Virus record (IMG/VR): IMGVR_UViG_3300037440_000408
Span: 1 to 30,025 of that record
Origin: a virus
Taxonomy: Duplodnaviria; Caudoviricetes
Length of the DNA: 30,025 nucleotides
Strand: one strand, 5' to 3'
This document shows, one piece after another, positions 9,415 to 29,688 of this stretch. Position numbers and translations under genes: made by a program. The notes beneath the pieces are model-generated. The model saw only the letters and a list, made by a program, of their open reading frames with translations, had not been told where the DNA came from and did not search any database. The first letter of the stretch is position 1. Each line of letters begins with the position of its first letter.

Positions 9415-9718
9415 GCGCGAGCGGCGGTACGTAGAAACCGAGGAGTATGTCGCCTTCATCCACCGGATCCTGCGAGCGCTGGGGACCCGGGTCGGCGACT
9501 GCGACGTAGAGATGCTCGCCAGCCTGGCCAGCCTGCCCGACCTGGTCGAGCAGCTGCTGGGTGAGACGGTTGACCGGCTGCGCACCACCCACGGCTACAG
9601 CTGGGCGGACATCGGGCGCGCCCTGGGTATCACCCGCCAAGCCGCCCAGCAGCGGTTTCATCGTCAACTGGCGGTTGACACCAAACCGCCCCCGGAGCCG
9701 GAGACTGACCATGCATGA
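9407..9718 (+). CDS. HTH DNA-binding protein
   Basis: GYSWADIGRALGITRQAAQQRF. Confidence 0.8.
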   Translation: MARRERRYVETEEYVAFIHRILRALGTRVGDCDVEMLASLASLPDLVEQLLGETVDRLRTTHGYSWADIGRALGITRQAAQQRFHRQLAVDTKPPPEPETDHA

Positions 9719-10751
9719 AGCCGCGCCGATCCCGCTCTCTACGGTCACTCCCCACTCAACCGATCGACCAAAGGGCCTGGTGCCGTACCGACCACATACC
9801 AAAACGCAACTGACTGTCTCCCGGGTGCTCGACCTGTTCGAGCGGATGCACGCGGCCGACGCCCTGCCGCTCGGCCCGCGGACCTGCGGCTACCGCCTGA
9901 AGGAGCTGTACGTGGGCGAGTACACCAAACGGGACTTCCCCGCCATCGGCGAGGTCGTCAAGAGGCTCCAGCAGGATGGCCGGCTGTCCTGGTCGTGGGT
10001 CGCCGACGCCTCCGCGGTCACGTACGTGGCGGACGGGTGGGACAGCCCGGACGAGTTTATCCGGCAGGCCCACACACTGTTTCGGCGTGACCGGCGCACC
10101 GGCCAGCCTCTGGTGCTGGAGGTGTACGCCGAGGCACGCGAGACTCTCGGGCTGATCCGACGCCTTGGCGCGGAACGGGGGGTGACGGTCTACTCGGGCG
10201 GCGGATCCTGCGGGCCGAACCTCGCCCACAAGGTAGCCGCCCGGGCGGTAGTCCGGGCGGTCGAGGTCGAGCAGTCCACCCTGATCCTCGGGATCTGCGA
10301 CTTCGACCAGGCGGGCATCCGCAACGTGCTCCGGCCGCACCTCGAACACCTCTCGGCGTTCCTGTACGGCACCGCCGGGAACGACAGGACCATTGCCTAC
10401 CAGGACACCACCATGTTGGATCTGCTCGATGGCGGGCCGTCGGCCTCGTTCCGACACCTGGCGCTGACCCCGGGGCAGGCCCGTGAGCTGGTGGAGACCG
10501 AGACCGACCAGCACCGCATTGACCGGTACGTCACCTCGGGCGCCGACCTGTGGACCCGGAACCTGGACCTCCTCGACCAGGTTCAGAAGGTCGAGACCGA
10601 AGCGCTGGATCCGGTAGCGCTGCGGGACATGGTGGTGGAGGTGATCGACCGGTCAATCGATGCCGATGCGCTGGAGCTGCTGGTCACCGAGGAAGACGAC
10701 CAGAGGGCCGACCTGCGAGACCGGTTCACCGAGCTGGAGACCGGCTCGTGA
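9711..10751 (+). CDS. Topo VI-A/Spo11-like winged-helix plus TOPRIM protein
   Basis: PRTCGYRL, QP..LEVYAE, GGG, CDFDQAG (DxD), LALTPGQ, ETEALDP. Confidence 0.65.
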   Translation: MHEAAPIPLSTVTPHSTDRPKGLVPYRPHTKTQLTVSRVLDLFERMHAADALPLGPRTCGYRLKELYVGEYTKRDFPAIGEVVKRLQQDGRLSWSWVADASAVTYVADGWDSPDEFIRQAHTLFRRDRRTGQPLVLEVYAEARETLGLIRRLGAERGVTVYSGGGSCGPNLAHKVAARAVVRAVEVEQSTLILGICDFDQAGIRNVLRPHLEHLSAFLYGTAGNDRTIAYQDTTMLDLLDGGPSASFRHLALTPGQARELVETETDQHRIDRYVTSGADLWTRNLDLLDQVQKVETEALDPVALRDMVVEVIDRSIDADALELLVTEEDDQRADLRDRFTELETGS

Positions 10752-11130: not shown

Positions 11131-11229
11131 TCATGTCCACCCGTTCCGCAGCCCGATGAGGATCATCCCGCCCACGAAGATCACCGGTATGACGATGTAC
11201 AGGATGATCCGGTCCGGCGACCACCTCAC
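11131..11229 (-). CDS. 32-aa single-TM protein (absent from the ORF track)
   Basis: MRWSPDRIILYIVIPVIFVGGMILIGLRNGWT; GTGA overlap with the holin-like stop; GGAGG upstream. Confidence 0.55.
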   Translation of the reverse strand: MRWSPDRIILYIVIPVIFVGGMILIGLRNGWT

Positions 11230-11426
11230 CGTGGCGCCTCCTGCCCGGTCGGCAGCGGCGCCTCGTTCGCCGGCGCCAGGTAGGTCGACAGTGATGCCGC
11301 GACCAGCACGATCAGCCCGGCCACCTCCGGCGCCAGCTCCACTCCGGCCATCCGTGCAACCGCAACCACCGCGGTGGCGGTCAGCCCGCCCAGGATCGCC
11401 GCGACCAACTTCCGTATCCGTCTCAT
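11226..11426 (-). CDS. holin-like two-TM protein
   Basis: RKLVAAILGGLTATAVVAV...VAGLIVLVAASLSTYLAPAN; at the end of the late operon. Confidence 0.55.
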   Translation of the reverse strand: MRRIRKLVAAILGGLTATAVVAVARMAGVELAPEVAGLIVLVAASLSTYLAPANEAPLPTGQEAPR

Positions 11427-11439
11427 GCCCCTCGCCTCC

Positions 11440-11712
11440 TCATCTGTGCTGCACGTGGATGCGGATGCTCCGCTCATCGGTGCGCCCCTGGCTGGTCACG
11501 ACCCGGCCGGTGACTGCGTAGGTGGTGCCCGGGTTGCCGCCGGCCAGCCACACCGTCACCACCCCGCCGGTCTGGCTGGCGGCCTGCGGCTGGGTGAGCC
11601 CGGCCTCGACCGTGACCGGGAAGCTGTCGATCGTCTCCCCTTCGAGCAGCCATTTGGACCAGTCGAGCGCGAAGTCCAGCTCGGCGTCCGGGTCTTTCAT
11701 GTAGGTGGCCAT
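11440..11712 (-). CDS. putative fibre-tail adaptor protein
   Basis: KDPDAELDFALDW...VWLAGG...Y.VT..V.TS.GRTDERS pattern of small phage structural proteins. Confidence 0.65.
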   Translation of the reverse strand: MATYMKDPDAELDFALDWSKWLLEGETIDSFPVTVEAGLTQPQAASQTGGVVTVWLAGGNPGTTYAVTGRVVTSQGRTDERSIRIHVQHR

Positions 11713-15204: not shown

Positions 15205-15930
15205 TCACAGTCCTATCACGATCATGAACCGGTCGGCGAAGAACGCCTGAGCCGGTGGCTCCAGGCTCCGGTACTTCGCGGTGAAGGTGTGCAGCCCGGG
15301 GTTGAGCCCGGTCACCGTGTCGCCCATCAGCGCGGTGGCCACGTGCAGCGCGTCAATGTCCCACACCAGCTCGTTCTCGGATGCCGGCGCCGCCACGGTG
15401 CTCGCCCCAGAGACCGCGAACGACATCGACACGCCCTTGTTCGGGGCGGATGAGACGCTGGCGCCCCACAGCACCACGGCCGTACCCGACTCCCCCACCT
15501 CCACGTCCGGGACGGTAGGCCCCGGCGTGGCCAGGTCCCCGTACGTCCCGGAGACGGTGGGCTCGGCGTCGGCGACCCCGGCGCGTTTGATCCCTTCGGC
15601 GAAGATCAGCCGGGACAGCTGCTTGGCCAGGCCGGCGCGCATGAACCGCACCGCCTTGTCCGCCGCCTCGGTGCCGGGGGTCACCCACCGGCCGTCGATG
15701 GCCAGCGACCCGCGGCGGGTCACGATGTCCACCACCGTGCCGGGGGTCCACGACAGCGCGTCCGGGGTCATCTTCAGCGGCGGGTTGGTGAGCACCGCCC
15801 CGTTGTAGGCCACGGTGCCGCGGAACGTGTCCGGGTCCCAGGTGAGCAGCACCCCCTTTCCGGCGCGGCCCGCCTCGGCCGGCCGGCGGGTCAGGTGCGG
15901 GGTCAGGTCGTCGCTGGCGTGGGTGGTCAT
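15205..15930 (-). CDS. minor tail protein
   Basis: Follows the tail hub; C-terminal TGLNPGLHTFTAKYR. Confidence 0.7.
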   Translation of the reverse strand: MTTHASDDLTPHLTRRPAEAGRAGKGVLLTWDPDTFRGTVAYNGAVLTNPPLKMTPDALSWTPGTVVDIVTRRGSLAIDGRWVTPGTEAADKAVRFMRAGLAKQLSRLIFAEGIKRAGVADAEPTVSGTYGDLATPGPTVPDVEVGESGTAVVLWGASVSSAPNKGVSMSFAVSGASTVAAPASENELVWDIDALHVATALMGDTVTGLNPGLHTFTAKYRSLEPPAQAFFADRFMIVIGL

Positions 15931-18308
15931 GGTCCGCCCCCGATCGCCACCTGGGCGCGCTCGCGCATGCTGATGGCCATTCGGCCCAGATCCAGCGGGA
16001 TGGTCACCGCGCCGACGGTCCGCAGCGACCGGCTGTCCCCGGTGTCGACGGTGACCACCTGGAAGGGGTCGAGCGCCGGATTGGGCACCGTGTCCAGCTC
16101 CACCACGTCCGGGAACCCGAGCGAGCGGCGCAGCATCGCCTCGGCCGCGGACCGGGCCTGGTCGTCGTTGCCGATCAGCGGGCTCACGAAGAACCGGGGC
16201 ACCTTCCCGAACGGCCCACCCCAGCGGGTGGGGGACAGCGGGTTCGCGTCGATCGCCACCGCCCGGGCGGGCAGCTGGTCGTCCAGCCCCTCACCGGTGG
16301 CCACCACCGCGTTGTAGACCTCCTCCCGGGACAGCCGCCGGCCGGCGAAGCCGAGCCCACCACCGCGGCCGGTGGCGATCTCCCACACCGGCGCCGCATC
16401 CTCCGGGGCGGTCTCGAACCTGAGCACCCCGGCCCGATCCCAGTAGACGATCTTCCCGTGGGCGCGGGCCAGGTCGAGCAGCCCGGCCAGCCGCTCCTCC
16501 TCCACCACCCACAGCCGGCCAAGCGGCTGCTGGGGCGTCTGGTCGTCGAATGCGATCACCGCGTCCGGGTAGATGTCGAAGACCAGCTCCTGAACCACCG
16601 ACCCGACTGTCCGGTCGGGCTGAAACTCGACCGGGGCGAGCATCCGGGCGTCCCGGATGCCGGCCATCCGGTCGTACCCGACCACCCGGACAGGCCCGTC
16701 GGGTGCGTTGTCCTGTTCCGCCACGTCGATCCGGTAATAGCCCAGCGACACCCGCAGCGGCGGCGCACCACCGAGGTCCACCAGGTAGGCGAGGTGGATC
16801 TCGTTTCCGAACGGGGCGAGCAGGTCCGACCCGCGGCGCGGCCACATGCCCTCGCCGGGGGTCTCCAGGTTCACGCTGCCGCGGATCTCGGCGCTGCCGT
16901 CCAGGGTGACTTCCCCGCCGAGCACCTCGATCTGGGTGCCGGCCGGCGTCTGGCCGGTCTGGAAGCTGGTGCACACGGTGGCATGGATGCTGGTGCGGTG
17001 GGAGCCGGTCAGGGTCCGCAGCAGCGCCCCGGTGGCCACCGGCGGCGGCGGGTCACCGATCACACTGAACTGCCACAGCCCCTGTCGGGTGGTGCCGCGC
17101 CAGCACGCCAGCCGGATACTGAGCACCGAGCCCAGGTCGGCCACCTCGACGGTGCCGTACTGGTCCCGGCCGGGCACGTCGGGCATCGCGTCGAACCGGG
17201 TTACCGCGCCGCTGGGGGTGGAGTCCAGCGATGCGGCCTGCAGCACCGGGAACCCGCCGACCGAGCCGGCGCCGGAGTCGATGCCGTTGGCGTGCCGGTC
17301 GCCGTGCCAGATGACGGTGCGGCCGGACCAGCCCAGGTCGCCGATCATCTCCGCAATCTCGGCCCGCTCGGTGGCGAACGCGCCCCACGAGTCGGTAGAG
17401 GTGCCCGCCCACTGCGAGCCGGACAGCAACACCAGCAGCTTCGCCTCGCCGTGGTCGGCCAGTATGGACCCAAGCCAGGCTTTCTGGGCCGCGCCGAGCA
17501 TCGTCTTCGACGGCCCGTCCGGGTCGTCGTTGGGGGAACGGTTGAACCGCACGTCCAGGGACACGAACCGGACCCGGCTGATCTCCCACGGATGGTAGAT
17601 GCCGTCCAGCCCGCCCAGCGGCGGGTGCGGCACCCGCTCCCCGTACACCTGCAGCGCGTTGGCTTTGGTGGCCAGCGTCCCGTCGGAGTCGTTCGGGCCG
17701 TAGTCGTGGTCATCCCAGATCAGGTCGAGCGCGAGCTCGCGGTACAGCGAGGCCTGGTTGGTCTGGGCCAGGATGTCGTCGTAGCCGGCCCGGTAGTTCG
17801 CCAGCGACCCGCCGCCGACGATGCCGTGGAAGTCGCTGCCGAGGTCGTAGTAGTGCAGGTCCCCGAGGTGAGCGAACCGGCGCCAGCCGGCAGCGTGCGC
17901 GTGGCCGAGGATGGTGCCGAAGATCGGGCTGTTACTGATCCGGCCGGCGGCCAGCGGGGTCCCGGCGGCCGGGACCGACGGGAGCCCACCGGCGCAGCTG
18001 GCGCCACCGACGGTGAACGAGCCGGGCAGCCCGGCCGGCGGGTCGGTGAGGAACCGGCCGACCGTCAGGGTGTCCACCGTCCCGTTGTCCTCGACCCGCC
18101 AGAAGTGGGCGGTGTCCGGGGCCAGACCGGTGATGGCGACCTTCGCCACCCCCTGGGCGTCGACCACCTGCGAGCCGGTGAACACCGCCGCCGCCATGGC
18201 CGGGTTGTCGGCCACCTGCACCCGCACCGGACCGCCCCCGTCGACCCGCGCCACGAAGGTGGCGCCGCCCGGGGTGGCCGCGCCCACCACCATGGATACG
18301 ACGGCCAT
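15927..18308 (-). CDS. PhoD-like phosphatase fused to a tail hub/minor tail (DUF5047-like) domain
   Basis: HLGDLHY, WDDHD, LDVR..RS, MLGAAQKAWL, GDRH; C-half LAPFGNEI, LGYYRI, GYDRM, VYNAVVATGE, PNPALDP. Confidence 0.8.
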   Translation of the reverse strand: MAVVSMVVGAATPGGATFVARVDGGGPVRVQVADNPAMAAAVFTGSQVVDAQGVAKVAITGLAPDTAHFWRVEDNGTVDTLTVGRFLTDPPAGLPGSFTVGGASCAGGLPSVPAAGTPLAAGRISNSPIFGTILGHAHAAGWRRFAHLGDLHYYDLGSDFHGIVGGGSLANYRAGYDDILAQTNQASLYRELALDLIWDDHDYGPNDSDGTLATKANALQVYGERVPHPPLGGLDGIYHPWEISRVRFVSLDVRFNRSPNDDPDGPSKTMLGAAQKAWLGSILADHGEAKLLVLLSGSQWAGTSTDSWGAFATERAEIAEMIGDLGWSGRTVIWHGDRHANGIDSGAGSVGGFPVLQAASLDSTPSGAVTRFDAMPDVPGRDQYGTVEVADLGSVLSIRLACWRGTTRQGLWQFSVIGDPPPPVATGALLRTLTGSHRTSIHATVCTSFQTGQTPAGTQIEVLGGEVTLDGSAEIRGSVNLETPGEGMWPRRGSDLLAPFGNEIHLAYLVDLGGAPPLRVSLGYYRIDVAEQDNAPDGPVRVVGYDRMAGIRDARMLAPVEFQPDRTVGSVVQELVFDIYPDAVIAFDDQTPQQPLGRLWVVEEERLAGLLDLARAHGKIVYWDRAGVLRFETAPEDAAPVWEIATGRGGGLGFAGRRLSREEVYNAVVATGEGLDDQLPARAVAIDANPLSPTRWGGPFGKVPRFFVSPLIGNDDQARSAAEAMLRRSLGFPDVVELDTVPNPALDPFQVVTVDTGDSRSLRTVGAVTIPLDLGRMAISMRERAQVAIGGGP

Positions 18309-24696: not shown

Positions 24697-27600
24697 CTAC
24701 GCGCCCACCGTGTGCCGGATCGCCGACAGCCCCACCGGCCGAAGCAGGTGGGTCGCGAAGTAGCCGAACAGCGCCAGGTCGATGAACGTCGGGCCGGACC
24801 TCTCCTCGTACCGGAAGACCAGGGTCGGCGACTCCCACGCCCACGCGTCCATGCTGTTCAGGGTGAACACGTCGGCGTCACCCGCGGCGTTGCCGGTGAT
24901 CGCCCACGCGGGCACATGCGCCAGCCCGTCCACGAACCAACCCACCTGCACCGCGTTGCCCACCCCGGCGGCGTTCTGGGCGCCCACCGACGGCAGCAGC
25001 GGCCGGTCCTGCGCGTCCTCGGCCGTCGCGAACGCGGAGGTTGCCTCCTGGCTGAGCAGCGCCCGGTCCGGGGCCCCGAACCGGCGGAAGCTGTAGACCG
25101 CCAGCGCCGCCCGCACCCCACGCAGCAGCTCCAGCCCGCCGAAGGTACCGGCAGCCGCCGACCCGCCGGTGGTGGTGCGCACCTGGGCACCGGACGGGAC
25201 GAACCCGGCGGTGATCGTGCCACCCTGCCCCGAGCTGCCGTTGAGCAGCGTGTACACCTTGCTCTCGCTCTGCCGCGCGTAGCTCTCCCGCATCGCGTTG
25301 AGCGCGATCTGGTCGATCACCGGGTTGGAGCTGTCCACGATCTCCCGGGTCAGCTTCAGCAGCCCCGAGATCGCCGTCGGGGTGACCGTCTTGGTCGCGA
25401 ACGCCAGCGTCCCGTCGGACGGAGGAGTCCCCTCCACGTGGTCCGCAGTCGCCCCGGTCGCAGAGCCGAAGATCGGCACCACGAACGGAGTCGAATTCTG
25501 GATCACGCCCCGGGACAGCGCATTCACGAACGGGCGGCCCTGCGCCAACTGCGGCACGAACAGGTCCGGCCGGTACCCCGGCGGGATCACCTCGGCCGCC
25601 GATGTGGTGGTGGTCGGCCCGAACGACAGCAGCTGGTTGGTGGCGAACGCCAGCCGGGAGTGAGCAATCTTGCTCATCTCTTCGGTCTGCTGGTGGAACT
25701 TCCGGATCCGGCCGTACGCCTCATCGTCCCGGTGGAAGTGGGCCGCCCACGCGTCGCGCACCAGGCAGCTTCCGCCGCCGTTGAACGTGTAGATCGGCGC
25801 CTCACGGGTCACCACGAACCGGGCCGCCCGCACCGGCTGCGGCCCGTCGGTCTGCGGGTCGTGGATGTTTTCCAGCGCCGCCTTGATCCCTGCGCTGAAC
25901 GAGTCACCCAGCGACTTGGCCAGGTCCGCGGTCAGCTTCTTGTGACCCTCGGCCATGCTCTCGCCGAGCTTGGTCACGTAGCCGTCCATGTCGAACTGGG
26001 CGGCGGGCGCCGCCGGCTCGGTCTTCTCGGGCATGGCGCCCTTCCCTCCATCTCGGGTTGCTTTGACCGCGGTGACCCGCGCGTCATCGAACGCGGGCAT
26101 CCCCGTTAGGGCGACACCCCGCAGCGTGGCCTGCCGCACCAGTCGAACCGACTCGTCGGACGGGTCGGGCTGCCACTGGTCGCCCATCTCGTCGTCGAAG
26201 TCGACCTCGATGCTGAAGCCATCCCAGCTACCATCCCGGGCCTTTCTCAGCGCCCGGTCCTCCTCCGGTCCCTCGCCGACCTTGAAGGTCGTATCCAGCC
26301 CGCGGCTGGTCGACTGGAGTCGCATCGCGTGACCGACGACCTCGCGGAAGTCGTGATGCAGGTTGAGCTTCACCCTGGCCTCAGTCGACCAGCGAAGCGA
26401 TCCTTCGGCGAACCGCCACTTGGCGAACCCTGAACGGGCAACCTTGCCCCACGGAACCGCCAGACCTGAGATCGTGCGCTTCTCCACGTTCACCCGGAAG
26501 GTCTCCGCGACCTCCGCGGTGTCAAACCGGATCCGGGTCACCCCGTCCCCGTCCGCCTCGAACGCCAACCCCGCCGGCTGGCCAAGCTTGTGGCCGTTGC
26601 TACCGCTCATCGTTGGCTCCCTGCCATTCGGGCGGGCCGGTGGCTGGGCCTGCCGGTCGCCACGCTGGTCCACCCGGGCGCGCTGCGCCGGAGTCAGCGC
26701 CGGCCGATTCTCCAGCTCCCGGATCTCGTCATCGGTGTACGCACCCACCTCAAGCCCGGTCTTGTACGTCGTCATCCGGGTCAGGGTGTCCCCGCGGAGG
26801 AACCCGCCGAAGTCCACCCGGGCCTTGTAGCCGCGGGGGGTCACGTCCCGCATGCTCAGCCGATCCTGAACCGCGGACACGTACGGCCCGTACGTGTCGG
26901 TGATCTTGTCCTGGCGCCGCTCCTCACCGTTCTGGTAGGTCCGGGAGGTGGTCGACACCCCCAGGTCCTCCGGGTCCACCCCGATCGCCCGGGCGATCTC
27001 CAGCACCGCATGCTGCCGCTGATCGGCCAGCTGCAGCTGCTCGGGGTTCCAGCTCAGCGTCTTGGCCTCCAGCCCACCGACGTAGCCCCACGCCCGCCGG
27101 GACCGGGCGGCCTCCCACGCGTCCAGCGCCACGTCGACCTCGGACCGGTCGGTCCCGTCGCCGGCCGAACGCGGCTCGGCCGACAGCGAATCGGCGCCCT
27201 CCGCCGGCGAGAAGTAGCCCAGCGGCAGCGGGTCGGTGGCGTACAGCGCCGCCGCCCGGTCCAACTTCAGACAGGTGCGGATCGCCCTCGCCGCGTGCAG
27301 CAGCAGCGGCGGGTTCGGCGAGTCAAACCGGATGATCTCCCGGTCCGGGACCGATACCCCGTCGATGAACACCTGGCCGTCGACCGGGAACAGCTGATCC
27401 GGGCTGATCTGCGACTGCGACTGGAGCCCGCCAGTTGGGGCCACGTGCACCGCCTGCACCGGCACATGCCGGGCCTGGACCGGGAACCCGTGCCACCCGA
27501 ACGCAGTCACCCGCCACCAGGCGATCCCCTCGAACAACAAGTCCTCGTACACCTGGCTGAATATCACACTGGTCGGGATGTCCGGGTCCGGCTGCTCAAA

Positions 27601-27882
27601 CAGCGGCCACTCGGCCGCCCGCCGGTCCGGGCCGATCTTCCGCAGCGGCAACGTCGCCGGCGTGCAGACCAGGTTGCGGCCCCGCAGCACCGCCATACAC
27701 TGAAGCGCCTCAGCGCGGGAGATCCGCGGCTCGATCGCCCCGCCGGCGGCCATTGCCTCCAGCATCTCCGGGGGGACCTCGACGGTGAACCGGGCGGCCG
27801 GGCGGGGGCTGACCATGGTGGCTCGGGGCGTGGCGGGTCCGGTCTGGTCGAATCCGAACAATCTGCGCCACCCTGAGGCCAC
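24697..27882 (-). CDS. portal - prohead protease - major capsid fusion
   Basis: Portal motifs (EIARAIGV, TYQN.E, EIRELENRP) at about 27882-26611; HK97-type protease (ISGLAVPW, HHD, DGFSI, PAFDDARV) 26610-26035; HK97-fold capsid 26034-24697; no stop between them. Confidence 0.88.
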   Translation of the reverse strand: MASGWRRLFGFDQTGPATPRATMVSPRPAARFTVEVPPEMLEAMAAGGAIEPRISRAEALQCMAVLRGRNLVCTPATLPLRKIGPDRRAAEWPLFEQPDPDIPTSVIFSQVYEDLLFEGIAWWRVTAFGWHGFPVQARHVPVQAVHVAPTGGLQSQSQISPDQLFPVDGQVFIDGVSVPDREIIRFDSPNPPLLLHAARAIRTCLKLDRAAALYATDPLPLGYFSPAEGADSLSAEPRSAGDGTDRSEVDVALDAWEAARSRRAWGYVGGLEAKTLSWNPEQLQLADQRQHAVLEIARAIGVDPEDLGVSTTSRTYQNGEERRQDKITDTYGPYVSAVQDRLSMRDVTPRGYKARVDFGGFLRGDTLTRMTTYKTGLEVGAYTDDEIRELENRPALTPAQRARVDQRGDRQAQPPARPNGREPTMSGSNGHKLGQPAGLAFEADGDGVTRIRFDTAEVAETFRVNVEKRTISGLAVPWGKVARSGFAKWRFAEGSLRWSTEARVKLNLHHDFREVVGHAMRLQSTSRGLDTTFKVGEGPEEDRALRKARDGSWDGFSIEVDFDDEMGDQWQPDPSDESVRLVRQATLRGVALTGMPAFDDARVTAVKATRDGGKGAMPEKTEPAAPAAQFDMDGYVTKLGESMAEGHKKLTADLAKSLGDSFSAGIKAALENIHDPQTDGPQPVRAARFVVTREAPIYTFNGGGSCLVRDAWAAHFHRDDEAYGRIRKFHQQTEEMSKIAHSRLAFATNQLLSFGPTTTTSAAEVIPPGYRPDLFVPQLAQGRPFVNALSRGVIQNSTPFVVPIFGSATGATADHVEGTPPSDGTLAFATKTVTPTAISGLLKLTREIVDSSNPVIDQIALNAMRESYARQSESKVYTLLNGSSGQGGTITAGFVPSGAQVRTTTGGSAAAGTFGGLELLRGVRAALAVYSFRRFGAPDRALLSQEATSAFATAEDAQDRPLLPSVGAQNAAGVGNAVQVGWFVDGLAHVPAWAITGNAAGDADVFTLNSMDAWAWESPTLVFRYEERSGPTFIDLALFGYFATHLLRPVGLSAIRHTVGA

Positions 27883-27930
27883 GCTGTCATCGTACGCTTG
27901 AACTCTCAATTATTGAGCGCTCAACCTAGG
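27883..27930. promoter_or_regulatory. divergent promoter/operator region between portal and terS
   Basis: TACGAT 6 nt before GTG at 27882 (leaderless); two TTGA-N4-TCAA boxes at 27898-27909 and 27913-27924. Confidence 0.6.
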
Positions 27931-27938
27931 GATTTCGG

Positions 27939-28247
27939 ATGAGTCCGGTACGCGATGCTGACAAGCTGGTGCTCCCGCAGGTCCGGCACACCATCGAGCA
28001 ACTGCCGCTGCTGGCGGCCGATAGCGCCGCCGCCACCCTGGCTGAGCGGTACGCCGACGCGATCGACCAGCCCAGCTGCCCCGAATGCGGAGGCCACAAG
28101 CAGGCCCTGATCGACCTCGGCCCCAAACTGCTGGCCGTGCTGGAGTCCCTCGGCGCCACCCCGAAGGCCCGGACCGCCGCCGTGAAGGGAGGTGAGTCCG
28201 CTGGCCAGGGTGCCCTCGCCAGGCTCCGGGCTGCTCGGACGGGCTGA
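27939..28247 (+). CDS. terS: terminase small subunit
   Basis: D.AA..LA.RYADAID...LGPKLLAVLESLGATPKAR; directly upstream of terL. Confidence 0.75.
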   Translation: MSPVRDADKLVLPQVRHTIEQLPLLAADSAAATLAERYADAIDQPSCPECGGHKQALIDLGPKLLAVLESLGATPKARTAAVKGGESAGQGALARLRAARTG

Positions 28248-29688
28248 GCCGCGCCTCTGGACACCCCCGGCGCGGCGGCTCACCCGCGCCACCAGCCGCG
28301 GGTACGAGGTCGCCGACTTCGCCGAGCAGGTCCTCGGCGAGCCGCTGCTCCCCTGGCAACGCTGGCTGGCCATCCACGCCTTGGAGTTGAACGCGGACGG
28401 CACCTACCGCTTCCGCGTCGTATTGGTGCTTGTCGCTAGACAGAGTGGGAAATCCTACGTACTGCGGGTCGTCTCCCTGTGGCGGCTGTTCATGGACGGC
28501 GCCCGGCTGGTCCTCGGCGCTGCCCAGTCGCTCGACATCGCCCGGGAAGTGTGGCAGGCCAGCGTCGACACAGCCAAGAGCGTCCCCGACCTCGCCGCCG
28601 AGATACCCCCGAACGGGGTCCGCTACGCCAACGGTGAACAGTGCCTCACCACCACCGGCGGCGGCCGCTACCGGATCACCGCCGCCACCCGCTCAGCCGG
28701 CCGCGGGCTGGCAGTCGACCAGCTCAACCTTGACGAGTTGCGGGAGCAACGGGACTGGCTGGCGTGGGCGGCGCTTTCGAAGACCACCATGGCCCGCGCC
28801 AACGGGCAGATATGGGCGTTCAGCAGCGGCGGCGACGACCAGTCGGTGGTACTCAACCACCTGCGCGAGGCGGCCCTCTCCGGCCGCGACCCGTCGATCA
28901 TGCTCGCCGAATGGTCCGCCCCCGACGGGTGCGACCTCGACGACTGGGCCGCCATCGCCCAGGCGAACCCCGGACTCGGCCACACCATCTCCGCCCAGGC
29001 CATCCGCACCGCCCAGGCCACCGACCCGCCCGGCACCTACCGGAACGAGGTCCTCTGCCAGAAGATCGAATCCAGCGGCGACGACGCGATCGACATGATC
29101 GCCTGGCGGGACCTCGCCGACCCGGCCGGCACCCTGGAGAGCTACCGCGACCAGGTAGCCGCCGGCATCGACGTAGCCCCCGACGGTGCCCACGTCGCCC
29201 TGATCGCCGCCGCGGTCCAACCCGACGGACGCAGCGTCCGCATCGAGCCGGTCGCCACCTGGAAGTCCACCGACGCGGCGAGGGTCGAGCTGCCGGACCT
29301 GCTCGACCGGATGAACCCGCGCGCCACCGCGTGGTTCCCCTCCGGCCCGGCCGCCTCGCTCGCCCCGATGCTCCGCGCCCGGAAGGGCTCCCTAGAGCTC
29401 AAGGGCGGCGCGGTCTGCGAAGCCTGCCAAGGACTCGCCCAGCTGGTCACCGACCGACTGCTGATCCACCCCGGCGACCCGCTGATCGACGCCCACGCAG
29501 CCGGGGCGATCAAGCTGCACATTGGCGACGGATGGCGATTCTCACGCAGAGGCGGAGGTCACGTGAGCGCGCTGTACGCCGCGAGCGGCGCGGCGTACGC
29601 CGCACTCACCGTCCCGCAGGTGGTCAGGATCAAGCCCCGGGTGGTGGCCGGCCGCCGGCCGAGGGCCGCAGCGGAGGCGACCCGGTAG
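28192..29688 (+). CDS. terL: terminase large subunit
   Basis: LLPWQ, Walker A VARQSGKS, Walker B LNLDELRE, ANPGLG, GIDVAPD. Confidence 0.93.
   Translation: MSPLARVPSPGSGLLGRAEPRLWTPPARRLTRATSRGYEVADFAEQVLGEPLLPWQRWLAIHALELNADGTYRFRVVLVLVARQSGKSYVLRVVSLWRLFMDGARLVLGAAQSLDIAREVWQASVDTAKSVPDLAAEIPPNGVRYANGEQCLTTTGGGRYRITAATRSAGRGLAVDQLNLDELREQRDWLAWAALSKTTMARANGQIWAFSSGGDDQSVVLNHLREAALSGRDPSIMLAEWSAPDGCDLDDWAAIAQANPGLGHTISAQAIRTAQATDPPGTYRNEVLCQKIESSGDDAIDMIAWRDLADPAGTLESYRDQVAAGIDVAPDGAHVALIAAAVQPDGRSVRIEPVATWKSTDAARVELPDLLDRMNPRATAWFPSGPAASLAPMLRARKGSLELKGGAVCEACQGLAQLVTDRLLIHPGDPLIDAHAAGAIKLHIGDGWRFSRRGGGHVSALYAASGAAYAALTVPQVVRIKPRVVAGRRPRAAAEATR

Follow-up and report, generated by a model that had tools for sequence, protein, structure and literature searches.

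How can a single phage gene encode both the portal and the major capsid protein? A phage head holds 12 portals and hundreds of capsid subunits, and because these copy numbers differ, one frame for both looks impossible without nested starts and cleavage of the chain. The question is raised by IMG/VR virus record IMGVR_UViG_3300037440_000408 (Caudoviricetes), analyzed here over its full 30,025 nucleotides and referred to below as the window. On the minus strand of the window, a stop-free frame of 1070 codons (27909..24697) carries portal, protease and capsid domains. The preferred reading is that this frame is one gene with three nested starts, whose products the built-in protease probably separates by cutting at conserved phenylalanines. 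We infer that the triple-fusion head gene is a new layout made from known parts, and the steps beyond gene layout are likewise read from sequence.

Three head domains in one frame

Pfam matches within the frame fall at residues 103-401 (Phage_portal), 477-617 (Peptidase_S78) and 794-1051 (Phage_capsid_4), bearing out the description of a single open frame with three head domains in an earlier note made from the DNA letters alone. The gene probably starts at the GTG codon at 27882, with the stop-free frame reaching upstream to a TTG at 27909. Read from the GTG, it spans 24697..27882 (all parts of the gene lie on the minus strand), encodes 1061 amino acids (~115 kDa) and runs in the order portal, linker, protease, scaffold and capsid.

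The portal domain belongs to the HK97 family (residues 10-405; 26695..27882; PF04860, E 8.6e-26; PDB 3KDR and 8CEZ). Foldseek matches it to HK97-family portals, and a PDB sequence search with the head protein returned portals only. The second domain is a prohead serine protease of family S78 (residues 471-620; 26050..26499; PF04586) containing H519 and S566, the latter in a DGFS motif. Both residues are invariant across 40 aligned proteases, and from knowledge of the S78 family we take them to be catalytic. A delta-like scaffold region follows (residues 626-763; 25621..26034), in which AlphaFold2 predicts long helices at residues 641-680 and 716-753. The frame closes with an HK97-fold major capsid domain and its TAG stop (24697..25620; PF25209 and PF05065), which Foldseek matches to HK97 and actinophage capsids with E values of about 1e-11 to 1e-9.

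Portal, protease and capsid were the only families matched in the head protein by Pfam and PHROG scans, neither of which detected an effector cargo domain; the match to phrog_2263 spans residues 463-1065. An AlphaFold2 model built from 58 aligned sequences (mean predicted local distance difference test score, pLDDT, 74; predicted template modeling score 0.41) contains three parts that fold separately and are connected by linkers of low confidence; long helices lie between protease and capsid. The gene thus has the HK97-family portal fold, the S78 protease with its His and Ser, and the helical-scaffold, HK97-fold capsid of an HK97-type head module, but not the separate portal, protease and capsid genes of that type. 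A 1201-residue "portal" of an uncultured phage in BFVD (A0A6J5S481), aligned over 654 columns, is perhaps a distant multi-domain head protein.

The fusion in relatives and its history

The earlier note cautioned that a single indel in the portal-protease linker would restore an ordinary portal stop. Consistent with an assembly error or a recent one-off linker frameshift, the stretch is present in one sequencing run only (X1, possibly the source sample; run X2 holds relatives only). A Logan contig from X1 covers 24769-27021, spanning both junctions, at depth 18 with 0 differences and 0 gaps, although a match in what may be the source sample of the window is not independent evidence. Independent support comes from relatives, because the homologous proteins are fused too. 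The search for the portal-protease-capsid architecture suggested by the note found 76 distinct, fully fused loci out of 121, isolate genomes among them, which rules out the indel and leaves error or a one-off frameshift refuted at the family level.

Related DNA was retrieved by short patterns, yielding 285 sequences, of which 249 had all three domains and 36 partial ones were dropped. At 90%, 121 loci are distinct: 76 are fully fused, 38 have a portal gene beside a protease-capsid gene, seven have a portal-protease gene beside a capsid gene, and none is split twice. At the protein level, a homologue search that admitted only lengths of 583-1857 amino acids, a filter that favors fused forms, gave 495 matches, and 118 of the 119 non-self proteins among the matches listed had at least 950 residues. 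After clustering at 50%, 70 of the best 150 representatives had at least 900. Scanning of 24 representatives gave 19 with portal and protease matches (only two of these with a Pfam capsid match too), three with a portal match alone and two portal-ADP-ribosyltransferase fusions. In proteins P0187 and P0242, portals of this family are fused to an ADP-ribosyltransferase domain in place of protease-capsid. Scans with single domains, where ranking by one domain does not favor fusion, found fully fused genes at 37/80, 25/36 and 22/37 loci.

Fused copies occur in isolate genomes of Micromonospora, Actinoplanes, Jiangella, Amycolatopsis, Actinophytocola, Labedaea, Prauserella and Kribbella, and fused genes sit in prophages of cultured actinomycetes. 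Protease queries against 401 genomes of the Amycolatopsis family placed 12 of 14 matches with E<1e-50 in frames of at least 960 amino acids; for 401 genomes of the Actinoplanes family the figure was 15 of 20 (E up to 1e-35), and among 401 genomes drawn across the entire class, the seed genome alone had a match in such a frame. Coverage of 80% was reached by no cultured phage record, either for the window protein or for two divergent fused proteins (0/293, 0/785 and 0/188 matching records), and by none of 24 matching plasmid records. Database names for the proteins give one or two domains only, and such single-domain labels hide the fused layout. As judged from these homologous sequences, the portal-protease-capsid fusion is real, old and widespread.

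A tree of portal plus protease from 113 family rows, with Arthrobacter phage Maggie as outgroup, has fused forms on every deep branch. It requires five state changes at the portal junction (one on the outgroup branch) and four at the capsid junction, compared with two and five on an earlier tree of 75 rows. An approximately unbiased test rejects a single clade for all portal-split forms (p 7.5e-95), with the group defined after the tree was seen. The fused state is likely, though not firmly, ancestral in the family, the outgroup branch being long. Modules have also been swapped: at locus L001 the protease is 97% identical and the portal 57%. The distant locus L314 (36% protease identity) has portal, protease and capsid in three separate genes. 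A rule that the protease must always be tethered was considered and dropped: none of the 121 loci is split at both junctions, but only about two would be expected under independence.

If frame were irrelevant, two in three changes in linker length would split the gene. Among the 79 portal-fused rows, linker lengths, estimated from BLAST ends, point to at least 67 in-frame changes versus about four splits within the family. Junk tails do not fully explain this constraint, because many out-of-frame tails are short (46 of 112 would be 45 residues or fewer; natural tails have 18-63) and a stop could be reached by one base change in 173 ways across 1103 linker codons. We infer that selection keeps the portal-protease fusion. 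Extra small domains lie in the linkers or before the protease at loci L004, L005, L006, L070, L138, L191, L213 and L250, and likewise in proteins P0080, P0081 and P0086; these insertions are possibly head cargo.

The same comparison bears on the idea that the fusion is a tolerated by-product, in which in-frame loss of stops joined three ordinary genes that kept their own starts and gained nothing for assembly while the protease trims the junk. Portals have split off about four times and capsids four to five times within the family, split clades thrive (38/121 loci), and cultured distant relatives have a separate portal, all as this idea would have it. The excess of in-frame linker changes over splits speaks against it, given that short tails and routes to a stop were on offer. 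So do six of the 76 fused loci in which no ATG, GTG or TTG occurs between the end of the portal and a point 12 codons short of the protease core, a count that leaves room for starts closer to the core; with no candidate start codon there, the protease probably depends on fusion. A by-product is accordingly rated unlikely, if still a serious contender.

Probable nested starts and candidate cut sites

The start signals named in the earlier note are all present in the DNA: AGGGAG 6 nt before an ATG at 26610, GGAGG 10 nt before an ATG at 26034, and TACGAT 6 nt before the GTG at 27882. The first two are Shine-Dalgarno (SD)-led candidate internal starts. That at the protease junction (26608..26622), found in 56/76 fused loci, would yield a 637-residue protease-scaffold-capsid product, and that at the capsid junction (26032..26049), found in 61/76, a 445-residue scaffold-capsid precursor. 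A start was scored as an in-frame ATG or GTG with an SD core 4-13 nt upstream, a motif test that replaced scoring by best duplex energy, which gave false starts in GC-rich DNA. In 48 fused loci, 37 protease-junction and 39 capsid-junction windows held such a start, against 42/840 and 46/1359 equal windows inside domains and 0-3/48 out of frame.

Synonymous resampling (500 resamplings) of the 76 fused loci gave a mean of 24.7 and a maximum of 36 protease starts for the 56 observed, and a mean of 40.3 and a maximum of 49 capsid starts for the 61 observed. The junction-start signal lies in the DNA, because the counts exceed all resamplings with amino acids fixed. Fourteen new fused genome loci kept the capsid start in 11 cases and the protease start in only five, and the latter is, from its distribution, lineage-specific. 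The proposal of nested SD-led starts therefore holds in that both are conserved beyond synonymous controls, and needs qualifying in that the protease start is not universal.

Relatives with split genes use these positions as well. The capsid start is SD-led in all seven portal-protease / capsid loci, and the protease start in 18 of the 38 portal / protease-capsid loci, where the search window missed long N-terminal inserts. Junction starts are evidently real gene starts in relatives split there. Capsid start codons in fused loci are ATG in 55 cases and GTG in six; protease starts are GTG in 34 and ATG in 22 fused loci, and ATG in 16/18 split loci. Graded start codons of this kind would fit graded output. 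RNA folding at the three starts gave no clear signal (z 0.53, 0.15 and -1.72).

These starts also bear on a pure polyprotein, in which all subunits would derive from the 5' start at 1:1:1 and surplus portal would be degraded or act as scaffold. At some fused loci, one junction indeed has no detectable SD start. Yet the starts are conserved at the nucleotide level, at varied spacings, within hypervariable linkers, and the same starts serve split genes, which makes a pure polyprotein very improbable. Hardly any weight falls on release of the portal during translation, by a programmed frameshift onto an overlapping TGA or a similar event, with little full-length product. The protease start reads ATGA in the window and in many split relatives the portal stops at this overlap, but an A follows the start at 18/56 protease junctions, no more commonly than at capsid junctions (24/61), so the overlap to which the earlier note drew attention is not a special sign. 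A -1 slippery heptamer, which bears on -1 shifts only, occurs in 1/76 linkers, and stops in the other frames show no positional conservation (tails of 17-536 residues).

The portal start appears to be of a different kind. The TACGAT hexamer (27889..27894) resembles a -10 box, and TAnnnT at such spacing marks a leaderless promoter in actinobacteria. It occurs 5-8 nt before the portal start in 53/77 portal-fused loci, 1/33 split loci and 6/1549 background windows, a conservation far beyond chance that upholds the proposed leaderless start; the contrast between fused and split loci stems mostly from one large split clade. An SD precedes the portal start in 15/33 split versus 7/77 portal-fused loci. 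A consensus promoter scan, which requires a -35 match, did not pick up the portal promoter. A 13-bp inverted repeat (27898..27924, no strand assigned) in the short gap separating the divergently oriented portal and terminase genes may be an operator. Short inverted repeats, or direct repeats spaced by 31 nt, also lie just upstream of the -10 box at L097, L098, L049 and L010; they differ from phage to phage, and none was found at L092 or L099. Repeats in this position are possibly operators.

Candidate cut sites emerge from an alignment of 72 fused proteins, in which seven columns are highly conserved amid variable neighbors and five of these are Phe (F41, F450, F462, F471 and F763). F41, F450, F462 and F763 lie in segments with pLDDT <50, and F471 begins the folded protease. 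The Phe residues share a rough motif, [A/V/L]-x-F-[A/S/T/D]. F41 (27787..27789) is an isolated Phe before the portal core, present in 109/113 loci, and F763 (25621..25623), invariant in 113/113 loci, stands before the capsid N-arm as a candidate maturation site. A cut after F763 would leave 307 residues, and solved actinophage capsid chains have 301-315. F450 (26560..26562), in the portal-protease linker, is a candidate portal-freeing site by its conservation: it is kept in 72/79 portal-fused versus 3/34 split loci, or 74/79 versus 6/34 under a wider rule, which suggests the behavior expected of a portal-releasing cut site. F462 is kept in both layouts (76/79 portal-fused, 33/34 split). Cleavage sites of actinophage delta domains are stated to be unpredictable from models in the accessible text of bioRxiv 10.1101/2022.09.09.507160. 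For the proposal that the embedded protease trims the chain, the conserved Phe residues supply candidate sites and partial support.

These elements suggest the following sequence of events. The -10 box 6 nt before GTG 27882 would very probably drive a leaderless mRNA whose 115-kDa full-length chain is the only possible source of portal. Translation from the SD-led ATG at 26034 is expected, with high confidence, to produce a 47-kDa scaffold-capsid precursor forming the bulk of the shell, and the ATG at 26610 would probably add a 68-kDa protease-scaffold-capsid form in this phage, its start being absent in some lineages. Within the prohead, the S78 protease is rather likely to cut after Phe (F41, F450, F763 and perhaps F462), releasing a portal of ~45 kDa and a 32-kDa capsid protein. 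If the portal points its C-terminus into the head, the vertex could hold 12 tethered protease-scaffold-capsid units. It is a speculative, tentative idea that 12 full-length chains would carry 12 proteases and as many scaffold-capsid subunits to the portal vertex and so favor portal-started shells. Comparably tentative is the wider picture of a widespread actinobacterial phage family that makes its whole head from one retrovirus-like polyprotein gene. In this picture a weak leaderless start would be the sole source of portal, each chain being covalently linked to its protease and first capsid subunits, so that any portal ring would be a ready-made nucleus; internal starts would supply the bulk of the shell, and a Phe-specific S78 protease would release the parts.

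Several observations weigh against the reading of nested starts and self-cleavage. A split layout is found in 45/121 relatives, and because close relatives have a separate portal or capsid gene, the tether must be dispensable for assembly. The protease start is absent in 20/76 fused loci and in 9/14 new ones. The link between F450 and fusion comes down to four independent contrasts, of which on average 3.4 run in the same direction and none ever in the opposite one (sign-test p 0.25), and split proteases often simply begin downstream of the F450 position. Conservation alone does not mark a Phe as a cut site: F462 and F471 are conserved as well, perhaps for structural reasons. As the loci are related by descent, Fisher p-values overstate support. 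Overall, the earlier interpretation is partly supported: the fusion, the internal and leaderless starts and the candidate cut sites speak for it, the lack of a universal protease start and the dispensable tether qualify it, and its proposals that nested starts set the stoichiometry and that the tether nucleates assembly stay hypothetical. Because the same proteins occur in this family both naturally fused and split, what a covalent link between portal and capsid is worth is measurable; if the reading is true, it offers a natural covalent test of portal-nucleated capsid assembly and predicts a Phe-cutting prohead protease.

Known head genes and the surrounding genome

No portal-protease-capsid gene was described in the literature searched, with most subscription papers and all supplements outside coverage, and the accessible part of PMC13669383 has nothing on this layout. 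According to the accessible text of PMC7302621, PMC5513430 and PMC11953736, protease-scaffold-capsid fusions are known in small actinophages, and portal-MuF fusions are known as well. The former phages include Arthrobacter AN/AX/FE, Microbacterium EE, Gordonia CW/DM and Rhodococcus RRH1 (accessible text of PMC7302621 and PMC5513430). Like the window, they carry protease, scaffold and HK97-like capsid in one gene, and they are its best cultured matches, at ~31% identity over portal plus protease. Unlike the window, they keep the portal gene separate, and their genomes are 14-18 kb with few non-structural genes, whereas the 30-kb contig has an integrase, Prim-Pol, AAA helicase and methylase. Five annotated protease-capsid fusion genes of cultured phages were checked (L284:3704-5287, L285:2896-4485, L286:4008-5627, L288:2980-4572 and L287:4214-6073). 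In Maggie, Hernandez44, Schiebs and MooKitty a single SD-led ATG lies in frame, and it comes just behind the protease domain; the single SD-led ATG of Emperor lies before it. A hidden capsid start is thus likely in four of the five, and the prediction extends to genes labeled "capsid and protease fusion" in readily grown Arthrobacter and Microbacterium phages.

Nested in-frame head genes occur as lambda C/Nu3, Mu I/Z and herpesvirus UL26/UL26.5, where an internal start makes a C-coterminal product in excess and the embedded protease carries out processing. The window gene resembles the lambda C/Nu3 type in that its internal in-frame start is conserved and has a ribosome-binding site of its own. 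Those genes nest only the scaffold inside the protease and leave portal and major capsid protein outside the frame, whereas here the nested product includes the major capsid domain. A lambda protease-scaffold fusion is also mentioned in the accessible text of PMC5513430.

HK97 has the same folds in the same order and a cleavable N-terminal scaffold on its capsid protein. The HK97 protease cuts after Lys, and cutting after Phe is predicted here. As given in the accessible text of PMC10275583, HK97 scaffold and capsid have 103 and 281 residues, compared with a predicted 138 and 307 here, and HK97 has three separate genes and a non-covalent portal-scaffold contact, in contrast to the one frame of the window. 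The same text describes ten coiled-coil towers of 30 scaffold domains encircling the portal, with portal nucleation as a hypothesis. Portal-effector (polyvalent) fusions are described in the accessible text of PMC5512222. Like these and the portal-MuF fusions, the window portal has a C-terminal extension into the head; theirs is cargo at portal copy number, whereas that of the window portal consists of the protease and of the very protein that forms the shell.

The window is the whole 30-kb virus record and contains head, connector, tail, short tape-measure, integrase, primase/polymerase and helicase genes. From this gene content, the phage is temperate and siphovirus-like, and its relatives point to an actinobacterial host. 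Small (27939-28247) and large (28192-29688) terminase genes lie on the plus strand (27939..29688; PF23931 and phrog_9), divergent from the head gene. Among 75 distinct loci, this orientation is divergent in 12 (Jiangella among them), on the same strand in 47 and not found in 16. The HNH gene, a usual neighbor of terminase, lies at the far contig end (240-506), and the contig may be incomplete because it has no terminal repeat. No endolysin was recognized among the open reading frames scanned, with only a weak holin match at 11229-11477. A tail-region protein (15927-18308) has an N-terminal PhoD-like phosphatase fused to DUF5047, and a phrog_6247 (DNA topoisomerase-like) frame (9561-10751), which runs on the other strand from the structural genes, adjoins an HTH gene. 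Prophages of Actinoplanes and Jiangella (L009:2123-7888 and L010:3015-7888) have just 2-3 kb between integrase and terminase, and their tape measures have 400-490 residues; these elements may be very small prophages or satellites.

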